A DNA stretch of 64,000 nucleotides from an uncultured Planctomycetaceae bacterium (GTDB lineage: Bacteria; Planctomycetota; Planctomycetia; Isosphaerales; Isosphaeraceae): positions 1,408,001 through 1,472,000 of the forward strand of contig CAWIAD010000001.1 in the NCBI GenBank assembly GCA_963833985.1. The letters are read 5' to 3'. Each line of letters begins with the position of its first letter. Position 1 is the first letter of the stretch. Shown here in pieces: positions 1 to 19,575 of the stretch. The notes beneath the pieces were generated by a model. It was not told the origin of the DNA. It searched no databases and saw nothing but the letters and a program-made list of their open reading frames with translations. The position numbers and the translations under genes were made by a program.

Positions 1-654
1 GAGCTCGGAAACAAAGCGTTTCCAGAACGAGACCGGTTGAAGATGAGCAGAATCGAGACGGAAACCGTCGCAGTCCGATCGCTCCTTCCAGCGCTTGGAG
101 ACGCCGATCAGGTAGTCCGCAACCTCGGGATTCTCGACCTTCCAGCGGCGGGCTCCGTACTCGGTAGGAGCGGCAAACCAATCCCGCTTGGCCGGATCGA
201 CCAGGAACGGGTGCTCGAACCCGGGCATCGCAAGAGGCATGTCGAGAATTACATGCATGTTGCGAGTATGGGCCGCGTCGACGAGCACGCGCAGAGTCGC
301 GTTGTCGCCAAAGTTCTTATCAACGTGTTCGTAGTTTTTCGGGCGATAACCAGTCGGTAGAAACTTGCCGACTGGGCTCTCGTCGTTTTGCATGATGGGG
401 TAAAGCAAGAGTGTGGTGACGCCCAGGTCCGTCAGGTCATCGAGCTTGGCGATCACACCCTTCAAGTCGCCTCCCCAGTAACCGCCCTCATAGCTTTCGC
501 GATCCCTGAGAAAACGGTCGCGCATGATGTCATTCGCGTGGTCTCCATCGAAAAACCTCTCGACGATGACGACATAGACGATCTCGTCTTCCCAGCGCCG
601 CGCCTTGTCGCTGGCAAGAGGCAAGGCCAGACTTGCTAACAACGCGAGATTCAT
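1..654 (-). CDS. GH13 alpha-amylase family glycoside hydrolase, secreted; 3' end runs off the window
   Basis: Manual translation (absent from the ORF track): MNLALLASLALPLASDKARRWEDEIVYVVIVERFFDGD...GGDLKGVIAKLDDLTDLGVT...VDKNFG...DAAHTRNMHVILD...DGFRLDSAH, which contains GH13 conserved regions. Confidence 0.85.
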   Translation of the reverse strand, partial: MNLALLASLALPLASDKARRWEDEIVYVVIVERFFDGDHANDIMRDRFLRDRESYEGGYWGGDLKGVIAKLDDLTDLGVTTLLLYPIMQNDESPVGKFLPTGYRPKNYEHVDKNFGDNATLRVLVDAAHTRNMHVILDMPLAMPGFEHPFLVDPAKRDWFAAPTEYGARRWKVENPEVADYLIGVSKRWKERSDCDGFRLDSAHLQPVSFWKRFVSEL

Positions 655-908
655 CGCCAATCACACCGTCCCAATCTTGGCCGGAACTCCTCAGATGAGG
701 AGGTCCGACTCGGTAGCTGGCATCAAATGGTTGATTGGAACTCAGGACAGAAGTGAGCAGAGCACCCGATTCAAGGCATTTCCATGGCCCTCTCGATCTT
801 GCGCGAGGGCGGCCTCGACAGCTCTCCGGCGTCGCGTTCTGTCCGGCTGCTACGGAAAGGCCTCAAGAGAATCGCTCGGACGCTCGTGTCGAGGATGGGA
901 CGGGACGG

Positions 909-1375
909 TCAAGCGCTTCGATCGGCGGAGGCCTTGACATCGTCGAGGGCCTGCAGGAGCGGCTCGCGGTGCAGATCGTCCGCCGCGACCTCAATCTCGC
1001 GAGCCAGGTCCCGTCCAAGGTTCGCCGCGGCAAGATCGGGCGATTCGCCATGCGACCGGAGTCGGGAATGCTGCGGTGATGAACCTGGACCGAATGGGCC
1101 GTGGCACCGGCCGTGACGATCACCTGGCTCGGGTCGGCCGCCCCTGGGGTCTCCTGCGTCCGGATGTCCTCTCCCCCGCACTTCGGAGACGTGATGGGCA
1201 GCGGTAATTCGGACTGGACAATCTCCATGGTGACGACCGGCGCCTTGTCGGGACGCTGCTGGCTGGTATCCGCCGGGCCAGCCCCGCCCTCGTCCTCGAA
1301 GCGGTCGATTCCTTGCGGAACAGGTTTGGTGGCCGCGGCGATAAATCGCGGCTCAGACGCAGCTTGATTGTTCAT
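909..1375 (-). CDS. Hypothetical protein, probably frameshifted near 1062
   Basis: RBS AAGGAG before ATG 1375. ...VQVHHRSIP continues more plausibly in another frame as LRSHGESPDLAAANLGRDLAREIE... Confidence 0.45.
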
Positions 1376-1432
1376 GGTCTGGCTCCTTTGGGATAGACTG
1401 TAACAGAATCTCTTGATTATTTCAAGTAAAAA

Positions 1433-2353
1433 TTATGTATCGACCTGATAACGCGCGAGGACGACCGTCACATTGTCGGGCCCGCCACGACGGAGGGCCA
1501 GGTCCACCAGGCGAGCGCAGGCGTCGTCGGGGTCGTGGTGGTGTTTTAAGACCTTGGCGATTGCCTCGTCGTCGACGGGCTGCGTCAAGCCGTCGGTGCA
1601 GAAGAACAAGGTGTCGCCGTCGAGCAGGGAGAGCTTGTGGATCTCGGCAAAGACGCCCTCGCTGGGGCCGCCGATGACGTTGGTCACGACGTGGCGCCGC
1701 TTGTGCCGCCTGGCCTCCTCGGGCGAAATCGAGCCGTCGTCGATCAAGGATTGGACGAGCGTGTGGTCGCTGGTCAACTGCAGCAGTTCGCCATCGCGAA
1801 ACAGGTAGGCGCGCGAGTCGCCAGCGTGGACGATATACAGGTCGGTGGCGACGCTATAGGCCATCGTCAGGGTCGTCCCCATGCCCTGGAGGGAGGGATT
1901 GCTCCGGGCGCGCTCGATCACGCTCCGATCGGCTCGTTCGAGGCTCTGGCGAAGTTCGGCCAGGAGCACGTGCTCGTCGTGGCCGCTCAGGTGGAGGAAC
2001 CACTTGAGCGTGTTCAGGACGAACTCCTCGACGCTCCCCACCGCCAGGGCGCTGGCGCGTTCCCCGGCCGCGGCGCCACCCATGCCATCGGCGACGACCA
2101 CCAGGTACCCCTCTTCCTCAGAAAGCTGCGTCTTGCCTCCTCCGGGCAGGCTGGTCTTGCACACCTGCATCGACTTGGACAGCCTGGAGATCAGAAAATG
2201 ATCCTCGTTGTTACCGCGGAGTTTGCCGGTGTTGGTCAAGCCACCGAACTTGACCCGAAACCGAGGTGGATCATGATCGGCGAGCACCTGGAACTCACCG
2301 GTCGAGTCGTCGAGCGTGGGACTGGGTTCCTGGAGCGGCATCCTCGCGGTCAT
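1433..2353 (-). CDS. PP2C/PPM family Ser/Thr protein phosphatase
   Basis: Motifs NEDH, VADGMGG, GMGTT, HAGDSRAY, CTDGL and GGPDNVT. Confidence 0.95.
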   Translation of the reverse strand: MTARMPLQEPSPTLDDSTGEFQVLADHDPPRFRVKFGGLTNTGKLRGNNEDHFLISRLSKSMQVCKTSLPGGGKTQLSEEEGYLVVVADGMGGAAAGERASALAVGSVEEFVLNTLKWFLHLSGHDEHVLLAELRQSLERADRSVIERARSNPSLQGMGTTLTMAYSVATDLYIVHAGDSRAYLFRDGELLQLTSDHTLVQSLIDDGSISPEEARRHKRRHVVTNVIGGPSEGVFAEIHKLSLLDGDTLFFCTDGLTQPVDDEAIAKVLKHHHDPDDACARLVDLALRRGGPDNVTVVLARYQVDT

Positions 2354-2388
2354 GTTTCTGGCACCCTATCGCAATGGAACCGGTAAAT

Positions 2389-2502
2389 CTAATCGATCAA
2401 GTGTGCGAGGATATCCTTGGGTCCACGGCCCGTGAATTCCTGCTCGAATCGGCTCATCCACTTGCAGATGGCGGCTTCGATTTCCCCCTGCGTTTTCATC
2501 AT
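2389..2502 (-). pseudogene. Truncated DUF2294 (MpsC-like) gene, N-terminal ~37 codons only
   Basis: MKTQGEIEAAICKWMSRFEQEFTGRGPKDILAHLID* is near-identical to the N-terminus of 6462..6851, then homology stops. Confidence 0.85.
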
Positions 2503-2722
2503 GACCTCCGGTGCGTTCCACCTCACGGTTGAGAGGCCACGCGCTTGGCTCGCCCCGCGGTGCAACCAAGCCTGGATCGCCCGCTCTCGGGCCATTTAAG
2601 ATTGATCCTACAAGGAAACGAAAAACAATTCACTTGCTATTTGCATCGCGCAGGACAATAACGAGCTGAAGGGGTTTCATGTCATCTTGACTTGAGCTCC
2701 GGAGAGATCGTAAACGAAACAC

Positions 2723-2832
2723 CTCGGACGACTAGGTAAAGAGCAACTCGGCTGGTCCGAGAGGCTCGTTAACGAGTAAGCCGATGTGGTCGAAGCCTTC
2801 AGGGTTTTCGACCACGTCGGCTTTTTTTGTTT
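2723..2832 (+). ncRNA. Structured cis-regulatory leader RNA with intrinsic terminator, copy 1
   Basis: CUCGGACGAC...GAGC-AA-CUCGG/CCGAG-AG-GCUC...GUAAG, then long hairpin GCCGAUGUGGUCG...CGACCACGUCGGC and U7. Three further copies in the window. Confidence 0.75.
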
Positions 2833-2878
2833 CGCTCACGGTGGGGCCGGAGGCCCGCAGGCACCAAGGAGGCACCGG

Positions 2879-3088
2879 ATGGAGAAGTCCAATCTGACCA
2901 TCGCTTACCAGATCGCCCGAGTGAGAAGGCCCATGGCAGAGGGGGGAAGAGGTCACGTGACCCGATGGCTGGCGGAAATCTCGGTCGAGGACACGACCGC
3001 AGCTTTGTGGATTGGGCCGTTCCGCCAGCGGCGGAGGCCATGGCCGGGAAGCCAGCCCCGAGCGGGTGTCTACCATCCTCTGATTTGA
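2879..3088 (+). pseudogene. Remnant of the second-type DUF2294 gene; only the first ~15 codons are homologous
   Basis: Same RBS block (CGCAGGCACCAAGGAGGCACCGGATGGA) as 7229. MEKSNLTIAYQIARV aligns with MEEVSLTMAQRVAEV, then diverges. Confidence 0.6.
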
Positions 3089-3142
3089 AGCAATGTCGAT
3101 ACCATGTGGAGAGCAGTCCCCCTTTTTTTAAGGAGTAACCGC

Positions 3143-3346
3143 ATGAATTGGGATCAGATCACCGGCGACTGGAAGCAGTTCAAAGGCAAGGTGAGAGAGA
3201 AGTGGGGCAAGCTGACCGACGATGAGCTGACGACCATCGCCGGAAAGCGTGAGCACCTCGCCGGCCTCCTCCAGGAAAGGTACGGCTACGCCAAGGACCA
3301 GGCCGAGAAGGAACTTAACGAGTTCGCACAGAAGCTGAAGCTGTGA
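3143..3346 (+). CDS. CsbD family stress protein
   Basis: MNWDQITGDWKQFKGKVREKWGKLTDDEL; RBS AAGGAG. Confidence 0.95.
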   Translation: MNWDQITGDWKQFKGKVREKWGKLTDDELTTIAGKREHLAGLLQERYGYAKDQAEKELNEFAQKLKL

Positions 3347-3405
3347 GAATCACCGACCAGGAACGAACGATCACAACCCCGATGACCCCCAAGGAGAACT
3401 GACCG

Positions 3406-3615
3406 ATGGCGACGACCACCAAGCATCCCGCTTACGAGCACCATCACCAGGCCGCAGCCCACCACGCGGCCGCCGCGCACCATCACCTGGAGGCAGCCCA
3501 TCACCACGATACGGGCGAGCACGACCAGGCCAAGAAGCACGCCGAGGCCGCGCACCACCACAGCGAGCACGGTCATAAGCACACAACCACAGCGCATCAG
3601 CACTCGAGCAAGTGA
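3406..3615 (+). CDS. Small His/Ala-rich protein, candidate metal-binding
   Basis: RBS AAGGAG; 22 of 69 residues are His; followed by a hairpin. Confidence 0.8.
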   Translation: MATTTKHPAYEHHHQAAAHHAAAAHHHLEAAHHHDTGEHDQAKKHAEAAHHHSEHGHKHTTTAHQHSSK

Positions 3616-3625
3616 GCCTTCTGTA

Positions 3626-3662
3626 CCGAGGGCCCGGGGCTTTCGCGCTCCGATGCCCTCGG
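3626..3662 (+). terminator. GC-rich hairpin after the His-rich gene
   Basis: CCGAGGGC...GCCCTCGG inverted repeat; weak U-tract. Confidence 0.4.
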
Positions 3663-4894
3663 GCAGTTGTTCAGCTCCTGCCTCAAGGGGGAAGCGAGAA
3701 TGAGCGGGGCCGGCTTTGAGAGAGGTGAAGAAGGCAAGAGAGGCGGAACGGCGACGCGCCGACTTCCCTTACCGGCATGATAGGTTCATCCCTAATTCTA
3801 ACTTTACTATAACATGTGTTCGTAACTGAGGGAATGGCGTCAAGATGCAGTCCCATGTCGGCGCGAATCGTGAACCGCAAGAGGAGTGTATCGGGACGGA
3901 ATCCGAGTGTTTCGTCGCGGGTGCGATTGTGGACTCGTGGGTCGAGTCCACGAGGTCTGCGGATGCCGTTGCCCTCTTGATCCTGCAAGTTGCGCCGCGA
4001 GGGCACTCCAACGACCTGGTTATCGTTGAGGCAGAGGCTGCGCTGGTCCCCGACCGGCTCTGGCTGGAAGACCTGAGCGAGAACCTCTGCCATGGGAGAC
4101 CGGTCGTTGCGCTCGGGTCACCGCCTTTGAGTGGTTTCTTCGCGGCCACTTGGCTGCACCTGACGCGGTAGGCTCGTCTCTCCAATCCAACGCGGTGCCA
4201 TCGCTGTGCGGGGGCTTAGCCATTGGGTGCGATGATCGTGGTTCCTGCTCAAGAAAAGAGGGTGTCCCAGGGCGTCAACGAGTAGGTTTGCTGATGATCA
4301 ACTCTTGGTCTGCGAGTTACTCCTCGCCATCGAGAAGCAGAGCAAGCGTGCACGGTGGCGGGAAAATGTGCCATCGACTCCGGTGACGTCCTTCCCGAGC
4401 CGGAAGGTCGGCAACACTCATCTCCATCTCGATCACACGGCGTTTGACATGGCCGGCGTCGTCTGTTCTCTGCTGATCTACCTTCAGTATCGCTCACAGG
4501 TTCTTCCAGATTCGAATGGGAAAGTCAGGATCCATGAATCAGAGTGACAGCGTGACTTCCCCCGCGTTCAACATCTCCGCATTGTCGAGAGGGGCACGGT
4601 CGATCGGCCAGCATAATGCGATCCCCAAAGCTCGCTTCGAGCCAAGCGAATTGCAAGCATTGGGCTCTCGTGAAGAAGTTCTCGTCGTCGACGAGCGTTC
4701 CAAGTTGCGTCCATCTCAAGTGATCGAAAGCAAACTGACTCACCTGCTCAGACATTCATCGCTTCCTGTCAGCGTGCTCTTGATGAGACGGATACTGCGA
4801 GCTCGCTAAGTCTCCGCGCCTTTGCTTCTCCGCCCTCAAGTTCGACCTCGGCTGACTGTAGGTCGGGGCAATCGACCGACTCGAAAGGAAAGCA

Positions 4895-5173
4895 ATGAAG
4901 AAGCTGACTCTGCGCCCTCTGCCCGAGCGAATCACAGTCACACTGTACGGCAGTCGTGGTGGTGACAAGGCAAATGAGGGTTGGTTCTTCCTCAGTCCCG
5001 AGGAATGGAAAAAGTACAAGGTCAAGCTGGCCAACTCAACCACAGAAATGCGGACAGTTCAGCCCAAGAGTTGGCACGACATCGACGTGTACTCTCCGGA
5101 TGACTTCGACGCGGCGATCAGGGATCTTCGCGGCCAGAGATACTTCGGCGGTTGCATCATGGAACCTCTTTGA
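4895..5173 (+). CDS. Hypothetical protein (92 aa)
   Basis: RBS AAAGGA, ATG start, globular-looking composition; no family recognised. Confidence 0.55.
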   Translation: MKKLTLRPLPERITVTLYGSRGGDKANEGWFFLSPEEWKKYKVKLANSTTEMRTVQPKSWHDIDVYSPDDFDAAIRDLRGQRYFGGCIMEPL

Positions 5174-5225
5174 TTCTCAACCCCCCTATAGCCGCCCTGT
5201 ACGCGAGAGCCCTTGATCAATTCGT

Positions 5226-6452
5226 TCATCCCGCTCTTGCCGGTGGGCTCACGATGGCGTCGATGAGGTTCTGGATCACGTCACGGAGTTGCTCAGCAAG
5301 CTGGTGGCGGACTGCCTGTGGATCGTGAAGGTAGCAAGGAACAAAGCGCCCCAGGTCGATGGGATCGCCGATGCGCAGGAAGACGTCCCGCCGTGCCAGC
5401 TGGCGCGGCCGGCTGGTCCCGTAGACCTCGCGCTCCAGCTTGAGAACCATTTCGGCCAGCCGCTCTTGAGACGGATCGAGGTCGACATAATGCGGCTGCC
5501 AGCTTCCCATCTGGGCAACGCGCTTGAGATCTGCCAGGTCGTCGTGCAGCCGCGCGCGACTCTGGTCGCTGAGTTCCTTACCCTGCCTCAGCAATTGCCG
5601 AAGGAAGGAACTGAGCCGCCAGGTACGATCCATGGTCTGTGACTGGGTGCCAATGGCAGGCCGTGGGTAGAGGCCCTCCATCTCCGCGAGGACCGCCTGA
5701 CGCACGTGCTTGACGCGCTCGCTCAGCTCCGCGAGACGATCCGGATCGGGCTTGAGACGATGACTGAGCTCCTGGCGATGCAAGAGTTCGGCCACGATGA
5801 GGGCCAATCGTCGCGGGAGCGAGCCACCGGTATTGCGCTGAAAGAGAGCCTGCTCCAACAATCGGGTACGCTGCTCCAGGAGGGGGCGAATGGGCTGGCG
5901 GTAACGGTATTTGATGGCCATCGGGACCAGATGCGCCGTCCAGGTTGGCTGGGTCCGCCGCGCCTCGAGCACGGCTTGCATTCCGATATCGACAGCGCCG
6001 CTCTTGAACGGCTGTACCAGATCGTTCAGGTAATAGATTTCGCCTTCCGGGAAGATGACGAGCACCTCACGTCCCCGCTTCACCACCTCGATGGCGTAGC
6101 GCTTGGCCTCCTGGTTCTGACCCCCGCGCTCCACGGAAAAAGCGCCCAGGCGCTGGAGCCACCAGCCCGCGATTCCGTGACCTTCGTCGAACGCCTCTCG
6201 GTTCATCATGAAGAGGAACCGGCGGTTGCAGCGGCCGGAGAGTTCCAGGCAAGCCTTGAGGTCCGTTTCATCGGCGTGGTTGGAGACAAGGATCAGCCCC
6301 GCGCCCTGGGGGAGATCCCTCAATACCCGGAGGTCGCTTTGTTCAAGACGCAACCGATTCCGCCAGGCCAGATCGAGTTTGAGGTAGTTCCGAACAGCCC
6401 AGATCACCCACCCGCAAGGCGTTGCCGGTCGAAAGCTCGGGTTTTCCGACAT
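5226..6452 (-). CDS. Lysophospholipid acyltransferase (PlsC family)
   Basis: SNHADETD (NHx4D), GAFSVER and IFPEG motifs. Confidence 0.9.
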   Translation of the reverse strand: MSENPSFRPATPCGWVIWAVRNYLKLDLAWRNRLRLEQSDLRVLRDLPQGAGLILVSNHADETDLKACLELSGRCNRRFLFMMNREAFDEGHGIAGWWLQRLGAFSVERGGQNQEAKRYAIEVVKRGREVLVIFPEGEIYYLNDLVQPFKSGAVDIGMQAVLEARRTQPTWTAHLVPMAIKYRYRQPIRPLLEQRTRLLEQALFQRNTGGSLPRRLALIVAELLHRQELSHRLKPDPDRLAELSERVKHVRQAVLAEMEGLYPRPAIGTQSQTMDRTWRLSSFLRQLLRQGKELSDQSRARLHDDLADLKRVAQMGSWQPHYVDLDPSQERLAEMVLKLEREVYGTSRPRQLARRDVFLRIGDPIDLGRFVPCYLHDPQAVRHQLAEQLRDVIQNLIDAIVSPPARAG

Positions 6453-6461
6453 CGCTTTCCT

Positions 6462-6851
6462 TCAGGAGTTCGACCTCTTTTTGACCTCGCGGAGAAGCGG
6501 CGACTCGGCCAGAGTGAAGATCACCACCTCTTCACCGGTCGTGGTACTGATATCGTGGTGCATGCTGAGTACCTTGATGCCGGTGCACTCTCGGATCATC
6601 GCTTCCATGAGCGGCCGCGCGGTTTCGATCAGATGCGTCCGAACTTGCTTGAGCAGGTCTCTCCCCTTCTCGGCCGGGAGAGACTTGACCAGATGCTGCT
6701 CGGCCGCGGTCAGAACGCCCTGAAGCCGGACAAGGACCAGATCATCGATCAGGTGTGTGCGAATATCCTTGGGACCGCGGCCCATGTACTCCAGCTCGAA
6801 GCGACTCATGCCCTGACAGATGGAGGCTTCGATCTCACCCTGCGTTTTCAC
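6462..6851 (-). CDS. DUF2294 / MpsC-like protein, intact
   Basis: GTG start: KTQGEIEASICQGMSRFELEYMGRGPKDIRTHLIDDLVLVRLQGVLTAAEQHL...LSMHHDISTTTGEEVVIFTL. Confidence 0.9.
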   Translation of the reverse strand: MKTQGEIEASICQGMSRFELEYMGRGPKDIRTHLIDDLVLVRLQGVLTAAEQHLVKSLPAEKGRDLLKQVRTHLIETARPLMEAMIRECTGIKVLSMHHDISTTTGEEVVIFTLAESPLLREVKKRSNS

Positions 6852-7074
6852 GATGGCCTTCAACGCGTTCGATGTCGCCGGGCGGATGCCACTCGCTCGG
6901 TCCACTCCGGAGTGCAACCGAGCATCGCGCGACCCTTCTGGGCCGCTGTCACATTGATCGTACAAGAAAACACAAAAATTGTCACTTGCTTTTTTCATTT
7001 CTCGCAGGCTACAGTCGTTGTATAGGACTCATGTCCACATGGCAAGGGCTTCGGTCGGATCATGAGTGCAGGTT

Positions 7075-7182
7075 GTCGGACGACTAGGTGAAGGGCAACC
7101 CGGCTGGTCCGGGGGGCTCGTTAACAAGTAAGCCGACGTGGTCGAATACCTGAGGGTGTTTGATCACGTCGGCATTTTTTTT
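7075..7182 (+). ncRNA. Structured leader RNA with intrinsic terminator, copy 2
   Basis: GUCGGACGAC...GGGC-AA-CCCGG/CCGGG-GG-GCUC...GUAAG; hairpin 7132-7173 with UGAG loop, then U8. Confidence 0.78.
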
Positions 7183-7228
7183 CGCTTGCGGTGACACCCG
7201 GCGGTCGCAGGCACCAAGGAGGCACCGG

Positions 7229-7648
7229 ATGGAAGAGGTCAGTCTGACCATGGCACAGCGGGTTGCCGAAGTAGCAGCCGCTTTCGAAAAGCAGCGAACA
7301 GGCCACGTGCCGCAGGCGGTGACGGTTGTTCTGGGCGACGAGACCTTGGTTATCACCCTGCACGGAGCCTTGTCGCCAGCCGAGCGTGCGCTTGCCCAGA
7401 CACCGGAGGGAGCCGCACAGGTGCAGGAGTTTCACCGCCAGTTGTTCAACGACTCCGCCGACGGGCTGCGGCAGGAGATCAAACGGATCACGGGAGTCGA
7501 GGTGCGCGAAGCCAGGGCGGAAATCGAAACGAAGACGGGCACCGTGGTGCAAGTCTTCACGACCGGCACTGTGGTGCAAGTATTCTTGCTCGCCAGTGGC
7601 ATATCCACGGAGACCTGGAACGGAACTGGGACTGTCAAGGCGTCATGA
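7229..7648 (+). CDS. DUF2294 / MpsC-like protein, second subtype
   Basis: FEKQRTGHVPQAVTVVLGDETLVITLHGALSPAERAL...IKRITGVEV...TGTVVQVF aligns with the DUF2294 pattern; strong RBS. Confidence 0.85.
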   Translation: MEEVSLTMAQRVAEVAAAFEKQRTGHVPQAVTVVLGDETLVITLHGALSPAERALAQTPEGAAQVQEFHRQLFNDSADGLRQEIKRITGVEVREARAEIETKTGTVVQVFTTGTVVQVFLLASGISTETWNGTGTVKAS

Positions 7649-7664
7649 GCACGGAGGAGATTGC

Positions 7665-7892
7665 ATGCTGATCTTGTCGAGAAAACCACTGGAATCGGTT
7701 GTGGTCGGCGGTGCTGTCGGCTTCGAGCGCGTGCTCAAGATCACGGTACTCGAGCTCAGTGGCGGTCGCGTGCGACTTGGCTTCGAGGCCGACTCGTCCG
7801 TTCCCGTCCATCGCTGGGAGGTGTGGGAAAAGATCCGCGCTCGAGGCCAACCGGAGAGCCCTCTGGAGGAACCCACGGCGCCGGCGGTCTGA
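7665..7892 (+). CDS. csrA: CsrA family RNA-binding regulator
   Basis: MLILSRKPLESVVVG...ITVLELSGGRVRLGFEADSSVPVHRWEVWEKI; RBS GGAGG. Confidence 0.9.
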   Translation: MLILSRKPLESVVVGGAVGFERVLKITVLELSGGRVRLGFEADSSVPVHRWEVWEKIRARGQPESPLEEPTAPAV

Positions 7893-7976
7893 TGAGGAAC
7901 CGAATGGCGCGGCGATCAGAAGCTCTGACCGCACTGTCCTCACCAGGTGAACCTTGAGATGAAGGAGAACTTGATC

Positions 7977-8153
7977 ATGTTACGCTTTGCTGTAGTTTTC
8001 ATCGTGATCGCACTGATCGCTGGGCTTCTCGGCTTCGTTGGAGTCGCAGGGCACGCATGGGAAGGGGCGAAGATCCTCTTCTTCGTTTTCCTCGTACTCG
8101 CGGTGCTGTCCCTCTTGGTGCACGGGTCGCGCAGGCGAACTTTCGTGGGTTGA
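7977..8153 (+). CDS. DUF1328 small membrane protein
   Basis: MLRFAVVFIVIALIAGLLGFVGVAGHAWEGAKILFFVFLVL. Confidence 0.9.
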   Translation: MLRFAVVFIVIALIAGLLGFVGVAGHAWEGAKILFFVFLVLAVLSLLVHGSRRRTFVG

Positions 8154-8195
8154 GTGGTTCGTATCACGATCGAGAACATTCTCTGGAGGTGACTC

Positions 8196-9449
8196 GTGGG
8201 TATCGTGCGGCCCTTGTTTGTCTCGACCTATCCGCCGGAAGAGTGTGGACTGGCAACTTTCACCAGGGACTCGGCGGATGCGGTCGATGTGGCAGCGCGG
8301 GCCCCAGTATCCTCGGTAGCGGCTATCCGGAAGACGGGCTCACTTCAATACGATGACCAGCGCGTTGTCCATGTCATTGACAACAACAACCGGGATGCCT
8401 ACCGACTGGCTGCGGAAATGGCGAGCGACGGCCCGTTTGACCTCGTGAGCTTGCAGCACGAGTTCGGCCTTTACCCTGGCGAATGGGGCAACCGCGTGCT
8501 GGATTTCGTGCGTGCCTGCCGCAAGCCCGTGGTCACGACTTTCCACACGCTCATGACTCAGCCCGACCCGCTGCCAAGGCGACTGATCCAGAAACTGGCG
8601 GCCCATAGTCAGGGCATGGTGGTCATGACGAAAGTCGCCTCAAGGCTTTTGACAGGCGTCTACGCTGTCCCCTGTCTGAACGTGCAAGTGATTCCTCATG
8701 GCGTGCCACAGGTCACCGTGGAGCGCAGTGAGATTCACAAGGCACGGCTGGGGCTGGGCGGCCGACGCGTGGTGTGCACCTTCGGACTCATCAATCGCGG
8801 TAAGGGCCTGGAATACATGATCGAGGCCATGCCTCGGATCGTGGCCGCCTATCCCGACGTTCTCTACCTGATCGTCGGTGCCACGCACCCAGAAGTCAAG
8901 CGCCACGAGGGAGAAGGTTATCGGAAGCGCCTGGTGGAAATGGCCGGGTCGCTGGGCGTCGGCGATCATGTTCGCTTCGTGAACAGGTATCTCAGCCTGG
9001 CCGAACTCATGGAGCACCTGCACGCCTGCGACGTTTACGTTACGCCCTACCCGGGAAAGGATCAGATAGCCAGCGGTACCCTGGCGTACGCCATGGCCGC
9101 AGGACGGGCCATCGTCAGTACTCCCTACCTCTACGCCGAGGAAGTTCTCGCTGACCAACGAGGCTTGCTCGTTCCTTTCAACGATGCATCCGCCCTGGCC
9201 GAGGCGACAATGCGATTCCTGAGTGATCCCGAGTTCCGACTTGAAACTCAGCGCAGGGCTTACGCGTACGCCAGGCCGATGTTCTGGTCGAATGTGGGAC
9301 GTCAATACCTGGAGTTCTTCCGCCGCATCGTGTCTGCAAGTCGGGAAACACAAGGGGCAGCCAGAGCTTACCGTGCAGATACATCAGCAATTCTGCGGAG
9401 ATCCGAGGGCCAGATTGTACTCCAGTCTTGTGTAGTACCTCCCGAGTAA
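8196..9449 (+). CDS. GT4 family glycosyltransferase
   Basis: [48 protein letters not shown]. Confidence 0.92.
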
Positions 9450-9794
9450 GTGAGTGGCGTCTTTTCCCGTGCTCATCGCGCATGGTACTTTCGAGAAGGT
9501 GGTCTTGCCGTCCCGTGCAAGATGCCGTTCATCGCAAGCCAGTTCTTGCGGCGCGAGCTCGGCGATCGATCGAAGCTCGTGCCGGACGGCTTGATCAATC
9601 TCGCCTTCGTCCGCCAGCTCTGCGAAGTTTACATCGACCCTGTTTTTTACCGTCGAGTACTGGGTGCGCTGCGCCAGATGGCGGTCCCCTCACTCCTCGG
9701 GCTGAAACGCAAGCTGCCGCCCGTCTCCATGGATCAGTGCAACCCGCCCGTGCTGTACCGTGCGTTCAAGACCTTGCACGAGATCGGTAAATGA
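9450..9794 (+). CDS. Hypothetical protein
   Basis: Abuts the GT4 stop codon; globular-looking sequence; start uncertain. Confidence 0.45.
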   Translation: MSGVFSRAHRAWYFREGGLAVPCKMPFIASQFLRRELGDRSKLVPDGLINLAFVRQLCEVYIDPVFYRRVLGALRQMAVPSLLGLKRKLPPVSMDQCNPPVLYRAFKTLHEIGK

Positions 9795-9996
9795 CCGGCA
9801 GCGACCGCGGATGACCAGCCTCGCCTCGGAACGCCGTTGCTGCCGGGTTAGCATGCGCTGGACGCGGCGGTCAATAACTGGGCCATCAATCACATCTTGT
9901 ATTCGAGAATTCTATATGTGGGCACAAAACTTGCAGATTCTTATTTCTCACAGGAGACCATCCTTGTTCGCGTAGAGTCCGTCACCGGGAGCCTTC

Positions 9997-10221
9997 ATGT
10001 CCAGCTTCACCTACTGCCAGGAATGCGGGCGCAGGCTCACGGATGTTGTCTTCTGTCCCAGGTGCGGGGAATGGTTTTGCTGCACCGCCTGCCTGACCGC
10101 GGGCTTGGACCGGCACCTTGGCTCGTGCTCGACTTCTGAAATGACGTTGCCACCAGCCGATGCAACGACCTGGCATCTCTCGCCATGGATACTCTGGCCG
10201 GGTTCCCATTCAAGGGGCTAG
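9997..10221 (+). CDS. Small Cys-rich protein, possible Zn-binding
   Basis: CxxC-x9-CxxC-x4-CCxxC pattern; RBS GGGAG. Confidence 0.5.
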   Translation: MSSFTYCQECGRRLTDVVFCPRCGEWFCCTACLTAGLDRHLGSCSTSEMTLPPADATTWHLSPWILWPGSHSRG

Positions 10222-12051
10222 TCTCGGAGTCGGACCCACCCCGTGGGAGCTGGCAGCAAGGAAATTCGGGCCTGCCAGAAGTGCCTTCAAGAGGTCCAGG
10301 TGCACCGGCTTGGCGAGGAAGGCGTTGAAGCCGGCTTCCTGGGACCGGTGGCAATCCGCTTCCTGACCAAGGCCTGACAACGCCACCAGAAGAGTGTCTC
10401 GAAGGCCGAGCTCCTGCCGCAGGTGGCGGGCCAGATCAAGGCCGTCCATTCCCGGCATACTGATGTCGCAGATCACAACGTCGGGGGGGTGCAGGCGGGC
10501 CAGGGCCAGCGCTGTCCAGCCGTCGTACGCGGTTCTCACTTCATAGCCGGCCAGTCTGAGGAGCAGTGACATGCTGTCGATCGCGTCCCTGTTGTCGTCG
10601 ACGAGGAGGATTCGTCGCCCTGGTGCAATCCTGGCTGGCCTCTGCTTGGCCTGCGCGGCGGGATATTCTGCGGGCAGCCGGCTCAGTAGAGGCAGACGAA
10701 CGACGAACTCGGCTCCGTGGCCCAGCCCCGCGCTCGCGGCTTGAACAGAGCCATCGTGCAATTCGATCAGGTTGCGCACCAGAGCCAGTCCAATCCCCAA
10801 TCCCTCCCCGGAGCGGCTCGTCGAACCGTTCGCCTGGGTAAACAGATCGAAGATCGTCGGCAGCATGGCCGGATCGATACCGATGCCCGTGTCCCGCACG
10901 CGGAGAATTGCCTGGTCGCCGTCCGCCTCCACGGTCAGTTCAATGCGGCTTCCATCCTCCGAATATTTGGCGCTGTTGTTCAGGAGGTTCGAGACGACCT
11001 GGGCTAATCGGCCTGCGTCTCCTGCTACCTTGACCGCCCGTCGGGGAAGGGAAATCTCCAGGACGTGTTTTCGCTTGTCGATCAGAGGGCGGCTCATTTC
11101 GACGGCGAGCGCCACCACGACTTTGAGATCAACCGGTTTCATCTGCAGGTTGATCTTGCCATGGCCCACGCGCGACACATCGATCAAATCATCGACCAGC
11201 CGGTTCAGTTGATGGATCTGACGCTCGATCATCTCGGCGAGCTCCTGATACTCAGGACTTTTCAGGCGGATGATCTGCACAGCGTTGCGAATCGGGACGA
11301 GCGGGTTCCTCAGCTCGTGTCCCAGCATCGCCAGGAACTCATCCTTGCGGCGGGAGGCGGCCAGGAGCTCGTGGTAAAGCCGGGCATTCTCCACGACCAA
11401 GGCAGCGCGGTGGGCGAGGTCCTCGGCCACCCATAGGTCTTCCCGGCAGTAACGGCGTCCCGAACGCTCGGAGTAGCAGAAAGTGAGCACCCCCAGTGTC
11501 CCGCCAGGAACCTGAAGCGGCACGGCGATCATCGAGCGGAGCTGCAACTCACGCATGATCTCGAAGTGCCGTTGACTCGTGGCGACTCCCCACATCCAGG
11601 CATCGTTGACTTCCGGGACGAATTCGGGTTGGCCAGTGCGCAATACCTTGCTGACCGGGTCATCGATAGAGCTTCGTACTGGGACAAACTCGAGGAATCG
11701 CTCGAAGAGTTCGTGCTTGATCGTGCTGGCGTGTGCCCAGCTCACCCGCTTTATCGTTCCATCCGTCTCAACAACGTCAAAGAAGCAAAATTCGGCGAGG
11801 AAGGGAACGGCCTGAAGGGCCAGACGTTTCAATGTGGTATCAGAGTCGCGGGAAATGAACTCCCCGCTGCTTTGTAGCAGAAAGCGTTGCGCGTCTTCGG
11901 ATTGTTGGTGCGGGCCTGACGTCGCGGTTGCGGGCATCTCTGCCACTGCAGTCGGGCCAGGGCCGGAGCTCTGCGAGTGCGGCCTACTCGGTAACACCAA
12001 GCCCGGTTTCTTTTCGAAGGGGACAAGTGATTCGAGTGAGGTTGCTTTCAT
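10210..12051 (-). CDS. Hybrid sensor histidine kinase (GAF-HisKA-HATPase-REC)
   Basis: EFLAMLGHELRNPL, NLLNNSAKY, DTGIGI, GLGIGL, ILLVDDN and CDISMPGMDG; RBS GGAG before ATG 12051. Confidence 0.95.
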   Translation of the reverse strand: MKATSLESLVPFEKKPGLVLPSRPHSQSSGPGPTAVAEMPATATSGPHQQSEDAQRFLLQSSGEFISRDSDTTLKRLALQAVPFLAEFCFFDVVETDGTIKRVSWAHASTIKHELFERFLEFVPVRSSIDDPVSKVLRTGQPEFVPEVNDAWMWGVATSQRHFEIMRELQLRSMIAVPLQVPGGTLGVLTFCYSERSGRRYCREDLWVAEDLAHRAALVVENARLYHELLAASRRKDEFLAMLGHELRNPLVPIRNAVQIIRLKSPEYQELAEMIERQIHQLNRLVDDLIDVSRVGHGKINLQMKPVDLKVVVALAVEMSRPLIDKRKHVLEISLPRRAVKVAGDAGRLAQVVSNLLNNSAKYSEDGSRIELTVEADGDQAILRVRDTGIGIDPAMLPTIFDLFTQANGSTSRSGEGLGIGLALVRNLIELHDGSVQAASAGLGHGAEFVVRLPLLSRLPAEYPAAQAKQRPARIAPGRRILLVDDNRDAIDSMSLLLRLAGYEVRTAYDGWTALALARLHPPDVVICDISMPGMDGLDLARHLRQELGLRDTLLVALSGLGQEADCHRSQEAGFNAFLAKPVHLDLLKALLAGPNFLAASSHGVGPTPRLAP

Positions 12052-12119
12052 CCGTTTCTCCGTGAGCCTTTTGGTCCTGAACAGCGAACTCAACCCTGCA
12101 CTTGTGAACCCCGCGCAAC

Positions 12120-12228
12120 AAACAAAAAAAACCGGCGCGGTGGAGCACCCTGAGGTATCCACCGCGCCGGCTTACTCACTAACGAGCCCCCCGCGAAAGG
12201 CGAGGTGCCCTTTATCCAGTCATCCGAC
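12120..12228 (-). ncRNA. Structured leader RNA with intrinsic terminator, copy 3
   Basis: Reverse strand: GUCGGAUGAC...GGGC-AC-CUCGC/GCGGG-GG-GCUC...GUAAGCCGGCGCGGUGGAUACC-UCAG-GGUGCUCCACCGCGCCGG, then U8. Confidence 0.75.
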
Positions 12229-12384
12229 GATCCCAACTCAAATTGCTATGGGATTTGCCCGCAAAAGTTGGACAGGCTCCCCAAAGTCAATTATTATGCC
12301 AGAATCAGCGTCCATTGCAAGGAAGTTGTTGTTTCTAGATAGGGTGATATCCAAATGACCGGCGATGGAACGGTCCAGGTCACC

Positions 12385-12892
12385 ATGAAAAGAGGGGGAA
12401 ATCGAAGCCGCCATCTGCGCGGGGATGGGTCGCTTCGAGCAGGAATACATGGGCCGTGGGCCCACGGACATCCGCACTCACCTGATCGGCGACTTGCTCC
12501 TCGTCCGCCTCCAGGGCGTCTTGACCGCGGCGGTACGGCACCTGGCCAAGTTGCGGCCGAGAGAAAAGGGGAAGGACCTGCTCAAACAGGTGCGCACGCA
12601 TCTACTCGAAACCGCGCGACCCCTCATGGAAGCCTTGTTCGAAGAAGTCACCGGCATCAAGGTTGCGAGCATGCACCACGATATCAGCACCTTCACCGGG
12701 CAGGAGGTCGTGCTCTTCAGGCTGGCCGAAACTCCGCAGGTCCGCGAGGCGACGAGGAGCTCAAGCCTTCGAACGGTGGCCGCCCAGGTCAAGGTGGTCC
12801 GTTGCAAAAAGCTGCTACCCGGACATAATTTCAACTGCTCTTTCCATGTGACCGTGGCTGCAACGACAAGCGTTCTCCAGGATTTGAATTGA
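12385..12892 (+). CDS. DUF2294 / MpsC-like protein, frameshift in the first codons (~12392)
   Basis: ATGAAA then GEIEAAICAGMGRFEQEYMGRGPTDIRTHL...; ATG 12385 is out of frame with the body of the gene. Confidence 0.85.
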
Positions 12893-12930
12893 GGCAAGCG
12901 AACGTCGGCTCCCGGAATCAAAGAGAAGAT

Positions 12931-13035
12931 GTCGGATGACCAGGCAGAGGGCGGCCCGGGTATTCCGGTCAATTCGTCGAAGCGTAAGCCGGCCTGGTCC
13001 AGGACCTGAGGGTCCTCGACCGCGCCGGTTCTTTT
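12931..13035 (+). ncRNA. Structured leader RNA, copy 4 (diverged, no downstream gene)
   Basis: GUCGGAUGAC...GUAAGCCGGC...GGUC-AGGACC-UGAG-GGUCCU-GACC...GCCGGUUCUUUU. Confidence 0.65.
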
Positions 13036-13074
13036 GCTCGCGCTCCGGTCGCTGGGCCGCAAGGACTTCACGAG

Positions 13075-13350
13075 CGATCCGAAAATGAAGAACGCCCAGT
13101 AGCCGGGCTCGTCCTTGAAGCGCTTCGAGTCCTGGATCGACACCGCCAGGCCGCGGAAGTCACCCATGAAATACCCCTTGCCGCTGGTCGCCTCCCGGGT
13201 GCCGGCGCCGATGAGTTCCTTGATCATCACGGTGCCGTCTCGGAATTCGCCGGTCTTCTCATAGTGAAAGAAGCTCTCCCGGTCCATGTCGACGGCATGG
13301 AACTCGGGGAAAGAGCCCTCGCCACCGTTCATCAGGTCATTGGGTGTACG
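13075..13350 (-). pseudogene. Internal fragment of a cytochrome P460-family gene
   Basis: TPNDLMNGGEGSFPEFHAV...YEKTGEFRDGTVMIKEL...KGYFMGDF...DSKRFKDEPGYWAFFIFG; no signal peptide and no CxxCH. Confidence 0.7.
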
Positions 13351-13731
13351 ACGCTCTCCACGGGTGCCCTCGACAGGATACCAGTTCGGGTTCCACCGCG
13401 GCTCGATCCCCCCGGTCGTTGCACCAGCTAATCAATCCGATGCACCAGGGCATCCTCGAACCCTGCTGGACCGGTTTCGCATCGTATCTGGAGCGGGCAT
13501 TCCCCGTGGAATCGCGCATCCGCAAAAGTTTGGCCTCGATGGGAGACGATCGCACGGGCGGAGGCTGTCAACTTGTGGGGCTTGCGCGAAATGTTATAGA
13601 CGGAAAATGCTGCGCGTTGGCGCCGGCAACCATGCGGATTCTGATTTGCTTAGGCTTGCTTAGTGCCGTGGAGCGAGATAGCTTACGGAGACGATTATTC
13701 CCGTTTTACCCGTCATCTCAGGGACCGAATC

Positions 13732-14163
13732 GTGCGCAAGACTCAGATGGTGACCGATCGAGAGCTCGAGATCATGAAGATCTTGTGGGCTCGGGAGAAG
13801 GCCAGCGTCCGCGAGGTTCAGGACGACCTGAACCGCGACAGCGGACCCGTGGCCTACAGTACGGTGCAGACCTTACTCAATATCATGGAAGAGAAAAAAG
13901 GTCTCGTCCGTCATGTTGTCGAGGGAAGGACGTTCATCTACTTCCCGAAGAAGTCCTCGGAGCGGACCATTCGCGAGCTGACGAAGCGTTTCGTCGATCG
14001 CGTCTTTGACGGTGCGCTCGACCGGGTGATGGTGGCCTTGCTCGACTCGAAGCCGCCGACGCCCGAGGACCTGGAACGTCTTCGTGCCATGATTGACGAG
14101 GCCCAGCGCCAATCATCGCAGAACTTCAACGGACACGCGGAGCTTCATCTCCAGGAGGCTTGA
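13732..14163 (+). CDS. BlaI/MecI/CopY family transcriptional repressor
   Basis: TDRELEIMKILW...SVREV...AYSTVQTLLNIMEEKKGLV. Confidence 0.93.
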   Translation: MRKTQMVTDRELEIMKILWAREKASVREVQDDLNRDSGPVAYSTVQTLLNIMEEKKGLVRHVVEGRTFIYFPKKSSERTIRELTKRFVDRVFDGALDRVMVALLDSKPPTPEDLERLRAMIDEAQRQSSQNFNGHAELHLQEA

Positions 14164-14353
14164 CGGGAGTTGACCCTCACCGTCATGCTAATTGAAGTGT
14201 CCGGGGATCCCGGGCCAGGAAGGTGCCTCTCCAGCGCGGCACTGACCTGGCCCTTCGCTTTGACCGCTCTCTCGTCCAGGCGGTTTGAAGGGTCTGTCGG
14301 ACGTCCCTTGGCTCAATTTCACCCGATCATTTTCCCCAGGTAGGGCCACTCAG

Positions 14354-15904
14354 ATGTGGGCCGGCCTCGACCGGTTCGACCGGATTCTCCTGGATGCCAC
14401 GCTTGCAACGACGATCCTGCTCAGCTTTGTGATCCTGCTGGTCTTGCTCTGCCGTCAGCCCAGCCGGCGCCTGGTCGTCGTCCAGGCCGCCACCGTCCTG
14501 ACCATCTTCATCCTTCCTCTGGTGGCCACCAACCCGTTCTCGCCGTCGCGCGTCGGGCTGCGGCTACTTGTTCCGGGGCGGCGCTCCCAACCGATCCGGC
14601 CGTCGCTGCGCCCCTCCGAAGCCGTCCATGCCAGCGCGGGGGACGGTGAGGGAAGCGGTAGAGTTCTTCGGGCCGTGCTGCCAGGCCGGGCCGGAAACGC
14701 GCCGTCCTGGAGCCTCTGGATGGCGCGAGCCTGCGGGCTGGCTTACCTGGCGGGTGTTGCGGCCGGAATGGGCTGGACGGCCCTGGGGTTCTGGGGAATC
14801 CGCCGGCTGATTCACGACTCCAGCGCGCCGCGACCGGAGACCAGCGCCTTCTTTCATTCGCTGATTCCCTTGCAGGGCGAGAACTTGCCGGCTCCCGAAC
14901 TGCGGGTCGCGACCAGGCTGCGACGACCGATCCTGGCTGGGCTCTTCCGCCCCTGTATCTTGATACCCGCGGATTATGACCAGGCGGGATTCGACCGCGA
15001 ATCTCTCAGGCTGATTTTCTTGCATGAGCTGGCCCATGCCGGCCAGTCCGATACGTACTCCAGCGCCGCGGCGAGCCTGGCACAGTGTCTCTGGTTCTTC
15101 CATCCCTTTGTGTGGTGGCTGCGCGCTCAGTTGCGGGTGGACCAGGAATTCCTGGCGGACGAGCGAGTCGTCCATCACACAGGTTCGCCGTCGGGATATG
15201 CAACCCGGCTGGTTTCCCTGGCAGCCGGCTCGGAAGCGGGTGCTCCCTCGGCGCCGAGCGGCAATCAGGCCGGGTCCCGCGCCATGTCTCCGCTCCGTGA
15301 CGCCTCCCCCAGCCCGCTCATGCAGCGGGTTGTGATGCTGCTCCACTGTCCGTTTCCGGTTGAATCAAAGGCTCCGAGGTGGTGGACCTTGTCCGCTCCC
15401 TTTGGTGTTGTGGGGCTAGCAATACTGAGCATCGGCACCAGCACGGCACTGCTGAAGACCTCGTCCCTCGCATCGCGGCCGTCCCGGTCTGAACTCGAAT
15501 CGGGCGTTTTCCAGGTGGGTCAATTCATTGCGCCGCCTTGGAAGCGAAAGTCCACAGGGCGAAGCGTGCCCTACGTCTTACCCCTTGCCCTGCCACCGCG
15601 ATTCGAGCTGACAGTCAAGATCGAGGGATCGCCCTCCGCCCTGTCGCGGATGTACCTGGCAGGGCTGTCACTGGAACCCCCCCTCTCACTCTCTCTCGAA
15701 TCCGGGCCGCCGCCAACGCCCGAGGATGCCGCCGCCGGCTGGCACCTGGTCAAAGTTGCCCGCCAGTCCGATCAGATCGCCATCACCGTCGATACGCGCA
15801 CCTGGCACATGGAAGCCACCAGGGAACGACTCTCGGAATGGCTGTCGATCGAGCCGCCACCCGCCGAGACTGTTGTGCTACGCGACTTACAGGTCATCTG
15901 GTGA
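14354..15904 (+). CDS. M56 (BlaR1-like) membrane metallopeptidase
   Basis: HELAH, WFFHPFVWW, EFLADE; adjacent to BlaI; start uncertain. Confidence 0.9.
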   Translation: MWAGLDRFDRILLDATLATTILLSFVILLVLLCRQPSRRLVVVQAATVLTIFILPLVATNPFSPSRVGLRLLVPGRRSQPIRPSLRPSEAVHASAGDGEGSGRVLRAVLPGRAGNAPSWSLWMARACGLAYLAGVAAGMGWTALGFWGIRRLIHDSSAPRPETSAFFHSLIPLQGENLPAPELRVATRLRRPILAGLFRPCILIPADYDQAGFDRESLRLIFLHELAHAGQSDTYSSAAASLAQCLWFFHPFVWWLRAQLRVDQEFLADERVVHHTGSPSGYATRLVSLAAGSEAGAPSAPSGNQAGSRAMSPLRDASPSPLMQRVVMLLHCPFPVESKAPRWWTLSAPFGVVGLAILSIGTSTALLKTSSLASRPSRSELESGVFQVGQFIAPPWKRKSTGRSVPYVLPLALPPRFELTVKIEGSPSALSRMYLAGLSLEPPLSLSLESGPPPTPEDAAAGWHLVKVARQSDQIAITVDTRTWHMEATRERLSEWLSIEPPPAETVVLRDLQVIW

Positions 15905-15922
15905 GACGATCACGCCCTTTCC

Positions 15923-16114
15923 TGCCATTCTGGCAAGACAACCTGACAAGACAGCATCTCCTGTCAAAATGACATCAAGCCGACGAATCATGCGCATTCC
16001 CGCGGGGGCGGCTCGGATCTGTGACTTCGGGCTTAAACTCAAAGGCTGCTTGAAATTAAGTCTGGAATGCGGACGCTCGGCCGAAACGCCGGCCAAATTG
16101 GCACGCGCCCTGCT
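15923..16114 (+). promoter_or_regulatory. Putative sigma54 promoter with upstream TGYCA-N3-TGRCA palindromes, for the hsp20 cluster
   Basis: TGGCACG-CGCC-CTGCT at 16099-16114; palindromes at 15923-15935 and 15962-15974. Confidence 0.55.
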
Positions 16115-16159
16115 CATGGGTGGAGACAGCGAAACGGTGAGGTAAAGGAGACCGATGGT

Positions 16160-16603
16160 ATGAACGGTTCGGAATGGCAAGGGCGGTGGGATCCACTGCG
16201 GGAACTCCAGCGCGAGATGGGGCGGCTGTTCGATCGCATTGACCCGTTCCAGCCACTTCGGAGTATCCGTCAGTATCCGCCGGTGAATGTGTACGACGGC
16301 GGGGAAAGCTACCTGCTTTCCGCGCAGCTCCCCGGGCTGACCGCCGAGGAGGTCGAGTTGACCATCACCGGTGAGAGCCTCACGATGCGCGGCGAGCGGA
16401 AGCGAGCGGACAATGTGAAGGACGATAGTTATCGCCGGCAGGAACGGCCGATGGGCCGGTGGTCGCGCACGATCACGCTTCCCGATCGCGTCGACAGCTC
16501 GAAAGTCTCCGCTTCGTTCTCCAACGGAATCCTCACCGTTCAGCTCCCCAAGGCCGAGGACGCGAGGCCGCGGCACATCGCGGTCAATGCCGGCAACTCA
16601 TGA
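16160..16603 (+). CDS. Hsp20/alpha-crystallin small heat shock protein
   Basis: YPPVNVY...AQLPG...RQERPMGRWSRTITLP...FSNGILTVQLPK. Confidence 0.95.
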   Translation: MNGSEWQGRWDPLRELQREMGRLFDRIDPFQPLRSIRQYPPVNVYDGGESYLLSAQLPGLTAEEVELTITGESLTMRGERKRADNVKDDSYRRQERPMGRWSRTITLPDRVDSSKVSASFSNGILTVQLPKAEDARPRHIAVNAGNS

Positions 16604-16658
16604 GCCAGCGCGGGGCAGGACGCAACACTCCTCCAGTCGAGGTTACGGGACGTCGCCA

Positions 16659-17084
16659 ATGAAAGCCGCACATCCATCAATCCGCGTCACCGTCAGCCGC
16701 CAGCGCACACAGGCACCCGGTCAAGGCGAGTTTTCGGATTCCCCGGCCGATGTCCAGCGGGCCTTCACGCCCCCGATCGACATTCACGACGGGCCCGATG
16801 GGCTGACCCTCGAGGCAGACTTACCCGGGGCCACCGAATCGAACCTGGTGATCCAGCTCGAGGACAATGTCTTGACCCTTCATGCGCGCATCGATCCGCC
16901 CGCCCCGGATGGAGCGCGGCCCATTTACCAGGAATACCACGTGGGCGACTATTACCGGTCGTTCATCCTCAGCGACGAGGTGGACCGCGATCGGATCACG
17001 GCCGAGCTGCGCCACGGGGTCCTGCGCGTGGTGCTGCCCAGGGCGGATCGGGCGCGGACCCGCCGCATCGAGATCCGCTCCTGA
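16659..17084 (+). CDS. Hsp20 small heat shock protein
   Basis: TPPIDI...EADLPG...YYRSFILSDEVDRDRITAELRHGVL. Confidence 0.93.
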   Translation: MKAAHPSIRVTVSRQRTQAPGQGEFSDSPADVQRAFTPPIDIHDGPDGLTLEADLPGATESNLVIQLEDNVLTLHARIDPPAPDGARPIYQEYHVGDYYRSFILSDEVDRDRITAELRHGVLRVVLPRADRARTRRIEIRS

Positions 17085-17134
17085 GCGGAGCTTGATCAAG
17101 GTCTTTTTTTACTCATCCCAGCTGGAGTCCCTCC

Positions 17135-19570: not shown

Positions 19571-19575
19571 CTATT

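Follow-up and report, generated by a model that had tools for sequence, protein, structure and literature searches.

The described systems closest to the element analysed here, a leader RNA of about 109 nucleotides (nt) that occurs four times beside genes of the DUF2294 (MpsC, PF10057) family, include attenuators governed by small proteins or by ions. The element lies in a 64,000-nt stretch from an uncultured Planctomycetaceae bacterium (contig CAWIAD010000001.1, positions 1,408,001–1,472,000; the window). The BglG/SacY/LicT/GlcT systems have an imperfect hairpin with internal loops (the RAT) that overlaps a terminator's 5′ arm; they are off by default, and the regulator is encoded next to the gene it controls. 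The leader resembles these in architecture only: its rod-shaped hairpin spans about 65 nt as against 30 or so for the RAT, the candidate regulator is a 129-residue PF10057 protein with no CAT or PRD match (PF10057 alone was returned from Pfam at E ≤ 0.1), the protein comes in two paralogous types, and many copies of the RNA precede stress genes. The RAT likeness was set against Pfam and Rfam alone, and the leader has no Rfam match. ANTAR proteins and HutP with its hut leader share with it a small protein that governs terminator readthrough, and for ANTAR also a multi-operon regulon; the leader is unlike them in that a single long rod takes the place of twin small hairpins or of repeats in single-stranded RNA, and neither domain appears in the Pfam scan or among the fold matches listed. 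The Na+-I (DUF1646), Li+ (nhaA-I/II) and fluoride riboswitches, ON switches that act by terminator competition before transport or stress genes, differ from the leader in that it has no Rfam match and has a fixed companion protein gene. MpsC of the Staphylococcus aureus mpsABC operon and YbcI belong to the same family, PF10057, and on a staphylococcal plasmid a DUF2294 gene follows dabB-dabA, and a hairpin resembling a terminator stands immediately ahead of the first gene; at that record, however, the rod was not detected (10.6 bits, terminator only), and the window has no nearby dab gene. The leader represents a genuine and so far uncatalogued attenuator family, for which there is a strong candidate partner protein; its mechanism is of a known type and its components are new.

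All four copies in the window, each about 109 nt long, were matched at 78–121 bits by covariance model R2, whose training set includes them and whose bit scores are to be read accordingly; this bears out the four copies of a motif of about 110 nt within 11 kb that a first-pass annotation of this DNA had proposed. Copy 1 (2721–2829, plus strand; 112.7 bits) comprises the rod hairpin (about 2724–2784; −23.7 kcal/mol), the overlapping terminator (−32.2 kcal/mol) and a U-tract. Copy 2 (7073–7181, plus strand; 120.6 bits), with a terminator stem at 7132–7173 and energies of −28.1 kcal/mol for the rod and −34.3 kcal/mol for the terminator, heads the sole fully intact cassette. Copy 3 (12123–12230, minus strand; 103.8 bits) has a promoter-like site at 12320–12293 and lies ahead of a GAF-kinase-receiver gene. 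The most diverged, copy 4 (12929–13037, plus strand; 78.5 bits), is a poor folder in which the rod is not the best fold (−16.9 when enforced vs −21.0 unconstrained); its target gene has been lost, as homology with the paralogous C2 cassette stops near 13080, and next comes a fragment of a cytochrome P460 gene in convergent orientation. An invariant core is common to all four in the alignment.

The layout described in the first-pass annotation, a gene of the KTQGEIE type (type A) divergent from the leader three times over and a fourth leader directly behind a DUF2294 gene, was recovered, the fourth lying on the same strand as that gene and having, in addition, its own promoter-like site at 12802–12829. 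The five DUF2294 genes or remnants that had been listed were likewise all found, of which only two are intact: a type-A gene divergent from copy 2 (6462–6851, minus strand, 129 residues; PF10057 match at 6465–6851, E = 4.7e-38, 130.1 bits) and a type-B gene, the first under copy 2 (7229–7648, plus strand, 139 residues; match at 7229–7645, E = 1.5e-23, 83.4 bits), both above the Pfam cut-off of 23 bits for PF10057. Divergent from copy 1 is a truncated type-A gene (2389–2511, minus strand, 40 residues) that aligns at 2392–2511 with PF10057 positions 1–34. Between copies 3 and 4 lies a broken type-A gene (12385–12892, plus strand; E = 3.2e-27 over 12425–12889) with a frameshift near its start and its normal stop lost, which may be an assembly error. 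A 69-residue open reading frame (ORF) at 2879–3088 (plus strand) is a frameshifted, diverged type-B derivative by DNA alignment with the 7229 gene; a Pfam scan of its first 36 residues gave no match. The derivative, compared also with locus L102, keeps an open frame of 67–69 residues that is 73% identical in another genome (L041, 1274–1474) and in L040 and L100 is broken again; this may reflect either shared decay or a reused microprotein.

From its 5′ end the leader runs from a promoter-like site through the rod to the overlapping intrinsic terminator. With a pattern of our own making, a σ70-like site with at least 8 of 12 consensus matches was found upstream of 69 of 118 leaders (the average over 20 shuffles was 7.7), in most cases 40–69 nt ahead of the core; a variable extra hairpin, judged by eye, often lies between promoter and core. 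The rod comprises, from the bottom, a base stem, a 3×3 loop, a 3-bp stem, a second 3×3 loop, another 3-bp stem and a purine mismatch, followed by a 4-bp stem, a 2×2 loop, a 5-bp stem and a variable cap. Its base (GG/CC, the 3×3 internal loop and ACU/AGU) is conserved in sequence, with near-invariant loop nucleotides G10 (100%) and A74 (99%). In a MAFFT alignment of 38 sequences that was not fitted to any model, 94.0% of the rod cells were paired and two-sided change was seen at 10 of 21 rod pairs (0 of 500 shuffles) and at 12 of 19 terminator pairs, and among 118 distinct model-fitted sequences from the wider Planctomycetota it was seen at 25 of 33 pairs. The covariation is confined to the upper rod and the terminator; lower down, the base stem and the first of the small stems hardly vary and are supported by conservation and folding. 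An alternative pairing of a 5′ GAC with a 3′ GUY was not counted, as it is incompatible with two helices that are paired at 94–98%.

For 117 of 118 sequences the minimum free energy fold predicted for nascent RNA contains the base stem, and in the full leader the terminator captures its 3′ strand in 112 of 118. Because this strand is common to the terminator, the base stem reads as an antiterminator, and since it is lost to the terminator once the leader is complete, the leader is predicted to be a default-off switch that needs a stabiliser. By computation, then, it has the defining arrangement of an attenuator, a leader terminator with a mutually exclusive upstream helix, and regulated readthrough is very probable. 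The comparison with Rfam suggested in the first-pass annotation returned no family: over window positions 1–20000 none in Rfam 15 reached its gathering threshold over a copy (the best overlap was RT-12, 25.2 bits against a threshold of 44.2, E = 1.4), and eight loci of both RNA classes (the second is described below) gave tRNA only. No description of the leader was found in the literature, of which the motif-catalogue supplements of PMC11109978 and PMC5737381 may list it; a term look-up did not find it in the accessible portions of PMC11109978, PMC8632094, bioRxiv 10.64898/2026.10.21.760802 and bioRxiv 10.64898/2026.09.08.750065.

The 10.2-Mb genome was searched with a model built from the window copies, and 150 of 4,578 candidates were scored. 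Of 20 matches, 10 were terminator-only and 10 full-length, namely the four of the window and six elsewhere, the six at E ≤ 4e-24; four of the six were recovered by model R1, built from the window copies alone with flanks. Two islands contain nine of the ten copies and every one of the six PF10057 matches, and the clusters of copies lie among transposases and broken genes, the window cassettes being 73–79% identical duplicates. One isolated copy (G000:C2:3615594–3615700, minus strand; locus L289) is far from any DUF2294 gene and is followed by a gene without clear family.

Beyond this genome the RNA and the protein occur together. Among 40 relatives, 15 have both, one has the RNA only, two the protein only and 22 neither (16 RNA carriers, counted from full-length matches at E < 1e-10, and 17 PF10057 carriers); weak RNA hits in G016 and G022 were scored negative because they are terminator-like. 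Fisher's test gives p = 5e-8, a value overstated by kinship and shared islands. As controls, CsrA is present in 40/40 relatives and DabA in 22/40 (12/16 RNA carriers, 10/24 non-carriers), so that DabA, whose co-occurrence the first-pass annotation had wanted tested, follows the RNA only loosely; at the locus itself there is no linkage. The RNA is patchy even inside one genus (10/13). In a sample of 150 genomes from the phylum, with 25–28 candidates scored per genome, PF10057 was present in 13, and the leader in 11 of these 13 and in 0 of 137 non-carriers; class I, the type found in the window, accounts for three of the 11 and a second class for eight, seven of which had supplied sequences to the class II model. 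No genome-wide occurrence independent of DUF2294, for which the first-pass annotation had wanted the leader checked, thus came to light in the relatives or the phylum sample. At closer range, 50 of 128 listed full-length RNA hits lie no more than 600 nt from a PF10057 match and 41 more within 50 kb, and conversely 64 of 84 PF10057 matches, some of them pieces of one gene, have the RNA within 600 nt; these distance counts leave aside 51 further matches, two weaker full-length ones and those to the terminator only. Around type-A genes (the best 80 of 607 loci from named genomes, a selection in which near kin of the query are over-represented), a divergent leader lies 114–391 nt away in 70/80, a leader is present anywhere in the locus in 76/80 and none is found in 4/80. 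The closest protein matches bear Isosphaeraceae names, and a planctomycete label is attached to 78 of 80 related loci. In one archaeon-labelled genome, a leader of 114 bits and a type-A gene share one contig (L134; G188:C6:377679–377787), which is probably misbinned planctomycete DNA, and the label of record L123 is probably wrong (genomes sampled by that label fell in the same phylum).

In other Planctomycetota a gene of the KTRGQLE type, which forms a different type-A subfamily, is closely followed on its own strand by a leader that is shorter (class II). A descriptor of the shared core found it in 35/80 metagenome loci, one of them probably spurious, against 0–2 in three shuffles. Its stems and loops come in the same order as in class I, with 90.4% of cells paired and two-sided change at 10 of 17 pairs (4/500 shuffles on the two-sided measure and 0 on the others), and the class II model matched 50/80 loci at E < 0.001, of which 24 are training sequences; it found no class II leader in the genome of the window. 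The genes that follow class II leaders include those for GTP-type phosphoenolpyruvate carboxykinase (PEPCK), type-B DUF2294, a DUF2294-PEPCK fusion, and CBS and HAD proteins. Models of the two classes hit each other only weakly, and the RNA class goes with the protein subtype. Of three Bacillota plasmid records, two, which are single cases and no survey, gave weak matches to the class I model, of 36.7 and 25.5 bits, in the spacer directly after DUF2294; the genes that follow are for SbtA and a membrane protein, the 25.5-bit match lying before a bicarbonate permease. At locus L088 (580–2424) a GTP-type PEPCK has a type-B DUF2294 joined to its N-terminus, and upstream of it lie matches to a class II-like leader; at L195, L211, L212 and L238 a tandem pair of leader-terminator units follows the DUF2294 gene. 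Database protein P0146 has both PF10057 and CsrA domains and is either a true fusion or the product of a lost stop.

The two DUF2294 subtypes, which the first-pass annotation thought could act as a pair, have fixed roles: type A stands beside or opposite the promoter and type B is the first gene under the leader. In neither class does type A lie downstream of the leader nearest to it, so that its placement is that of a regulator and not of an output, and the main argument for the protein is that it stays beside the leader and outside its control while targets, RNA and host change; the link survives the replacement of all other genes, as the PEPCK and SbtA contexts illustrate. We therefore favour the reading, at a probability of roughly 0.58, that type-A DUF2294 is a new antiterminator protein that operates the leader, a role the first-pass annotation had suggested. 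RNA polymerase would start at the σ70-like promoter some 50–60 nt upstream of the core, and the nascent RNA would first fold into the irregular rod, whose base uses the CCG strand of the stronger terminator; by the computed energies the terminator would win by default, leaving the genes off. Type A, made from the neighbouring gene outside leader control, would on a given signal bind the base of the rod, block the terminator and so turn on several general-stress operons. Type B, made only after readthrough, might act as a feedback partner, which is the weakest step of the scheme. For the signal, the related classes offer CO2 or bicarbonate, pH or Na+ as leads.

Types A and B are homologous (24% identical, hhalign probability 98%) and are predicted to share a helix-strand-strand-helices-strand-strand fold, with predicted local distance difference test scores of 93 and 82. 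Residues R25, R42, K68, R71, R79 and H98 are conserved across the type-A sets of both classes. A sequence search of solved structures gave 0 matches at E ≤ 10, Foldseek nothing at E ≤ 0.001, VIA-align nothing at Z ≥ 8 with either model, and the ESM Atlas without PF10057 members no usable match. KH-II proteins are among the fold matches (RbfA, Z 5.5 with a root-mean-square deviation of 3.8 over 87 aligned residues, and 5.0; Era, 5.1; KhpB, 5.0 and 4.5), but these scores are within background, the best Z of 7.3 belonging to FtsK, and the likeness is thus a lead only. The predicted complex of types A and B (score 0.13, mark 0.32) speaks neither for nor against their association.

Several points weigh against an antiterminator role for type A. 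The proteins are not basic overall, with median isoelectric points of 6.5 for type A and 5.5 for type B. The base stem, the very part that must switch, has no two-sided change in the 38 sequences and shows it in one of the 118, so that its support is conservation and folding. Genome G001 (1,220 contigs, 89% complete) has the RNA without a DUF2294 match, and 37 of the 128 RNA hits have none within 50 kb or on their contig. The genome-level counts overstate the association because RNA and genes share islands and kin are not independent, and three of the five DUF2294 genes in the window are broken (all but 6462–6851 and 7229–7648). In S. aureus, deletion of mpsC had no growth phenotype and the gene was dispensable for MpsAB (PMC6689103).

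The strongest competing explanation, which we nevertheless consider rather unlikely, is that of an ON-type riboswitch in which the loops of the rod bind bicarbonate/CO2, Na+ or a stress metabolite and DUF2294 serves the same pathway without touching the RNA. The near-invariance of G10 and A74 would suit a binding site, an overlap of base stem and terminator is the usual layout of ON riboswitches, and many copies precede diverse genes, among them a second ATP synthase operon, PEPCK and SbtA. A riboswitch, however, could work without any particular gene beside it, whereas the RNA is faced, at almost the same distance each time, by 70 of 80 type-A genes, and the leader is absent from all 137 non-carrier genomes; moreover the loop sequence changes between the classes in step with the protein subtype, and the plain rod was found to have no junction or pseudoknot.

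It is improbable that the terminated transcript of 160–170 nt is itself the product and, as a small RNA, binds DUF2294 or CsrA or titrates them, while readthrough stays low and constitutive. Its own promoter-like site, the strong terminator, the extra hairpin ahead of the core, the presence of a CsrA-like gene under copy 2 and a GGA at the 5′ end of 88% of class I leaders would all fit such a role, but a gene start 30–100 nt after the U-tract leaves little room for another promoter, class II lacks the GGA, and CsrA is in 40/40 genomes against 16 with the RNA. Least probable of all is hitch-hiking, in which a promoter-leader-gene cassette was duplicated in a mobile stress island and RNA and DUF2294 are functionally unlinked, for although the transposases, broken genes, duplicate cassettes and patchy occurrence agree with it, the pairing recurs in the unrelated PEPCK and SbtA contexts with diverged RNA and protein, and compensatory change keeps the structure across copies before different targets.

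The antiterminator reading places varied genes under the leader, a same-strand gene usually starting, by a rough ORF rule, 30–100 nt past the U-tract. Likely targets of copy 1 are a gene for a CsbD-like stress protein (3143–3346, plus strand; PF05532, E = 1.5e-21) and a small histidine-rich ORF behind it (3407–3616, plus strand; 69 residues, no Pfam match). Under copy 2, on the plus strand, lie a CsrA-like gene (7665–7892; PF02599, E = 6e-16) and genes for a small DUF1328 membrane protein (7977–8153; PF07043) and a group-1 glycosyltransferase (8196–9449; PF00534), and the target of copy 3 encodes, by Pfam, a GAF-HisKA-HATPase-receiver hybrid kinase (10210–12048, minus strand). Genome-wide, the leaders precede DUF3309, DUF1328, holin-like and AI-2E genes, a radical SAM gene, CsbD, the type B-CsrA-DUF1328-glycosyltransferase series, the hybrid kinase, a YflT-PPK2-pentose phosphate-ATP synthase run and SPFH-RND genes; in relatives, ferritin, BON and HPr genes are added (85 selected ORFs scanned). 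CsbD and YflT, as described in Pfam, are general-stress markers. At L288 (283–15085, minus strand) a single leader heads a same-strand run of YflT, PPK2, phosphomannose isomerase, HAD, GH130, transketolase, RpiB, G6PD, a transaldolase piece and, with beta as its leading gene, a second ATP synthase operon, whose c subunit has ESIAIY in place of the Na+ motif ESTxxY. Directly behind the intact type-A gene is an acyltransferase gene (5226–6452, minus strand; PF01553) and behind the truncated one a PP2C-family phosphatase gene (1433–2353, minus strand; PF13672). Farther along the plus strand are a BlaI-like repressor and M56 peptidase pair (13663–15904) and an ORF (18001–19380) that resembles an ISL3-family transposase, followed by a 28-bp hairpin at 19436–19502.

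As the first-pass annotation stated, no DabAB/MpsAB-type transporter is present in the window; the genome does have a DabA gene, at a distance of 1.2 Mb, and the 12 kb around it contain no copy of the leader. Because its targets are general-stress genes and DabA does not closely track the RNA, the link of class I to inorganic carbon is weak, while the related class before PEPCK, and the SbtA context, make a better case. The statement that DUF2294 accompanies such transporters in several phyla holds for Staphylococcus and is tempered elsewhere by the authors' synteny in PMC6689103, by which mpsC and mpsAB do not lie together outside staphylococci. For Bacillus subtilis, a control genome in which PF10057 is also present, the accessible text of bioRxiv 10.64898/2026.09.08.750065 calls regulation of the transporter unexplored and mentions neither mpsC, ybcI nor a leader; two further papers report a 158-nt RNA before ndhF (PMC2965217) and a sevenfold rise of ndhF-ybcC without c-di-AMP (PMC7857571). 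It is possible, though we hold it only tentatively, that DUF2294/MpsC/YbcI proteins are cross-phylum, signal-sensing, RNA-binding antiterminators that co-evolve with rod leaders and sense CO2/bicarbonate or the accompanying pH, and that planctomycetes have expanded them into a general-stress regulon controlled at termination, with the second paralogue as feedback partner.

Should the RNA instead bind a ligand directly, it would be a new riboswitch class with more than 100 representatives already aligned. If type-A DUF2294 is the antiterminator, the leader and its protein would lengthen the short list of known antiterminator pairs of protein and RNA, and would show how soil planctomycetes turn on general-stress genes, and a molecular function would be in hand for a family found in the bicarbonate-pump operons of Staphylococcus and also in Bacillus subtilis.

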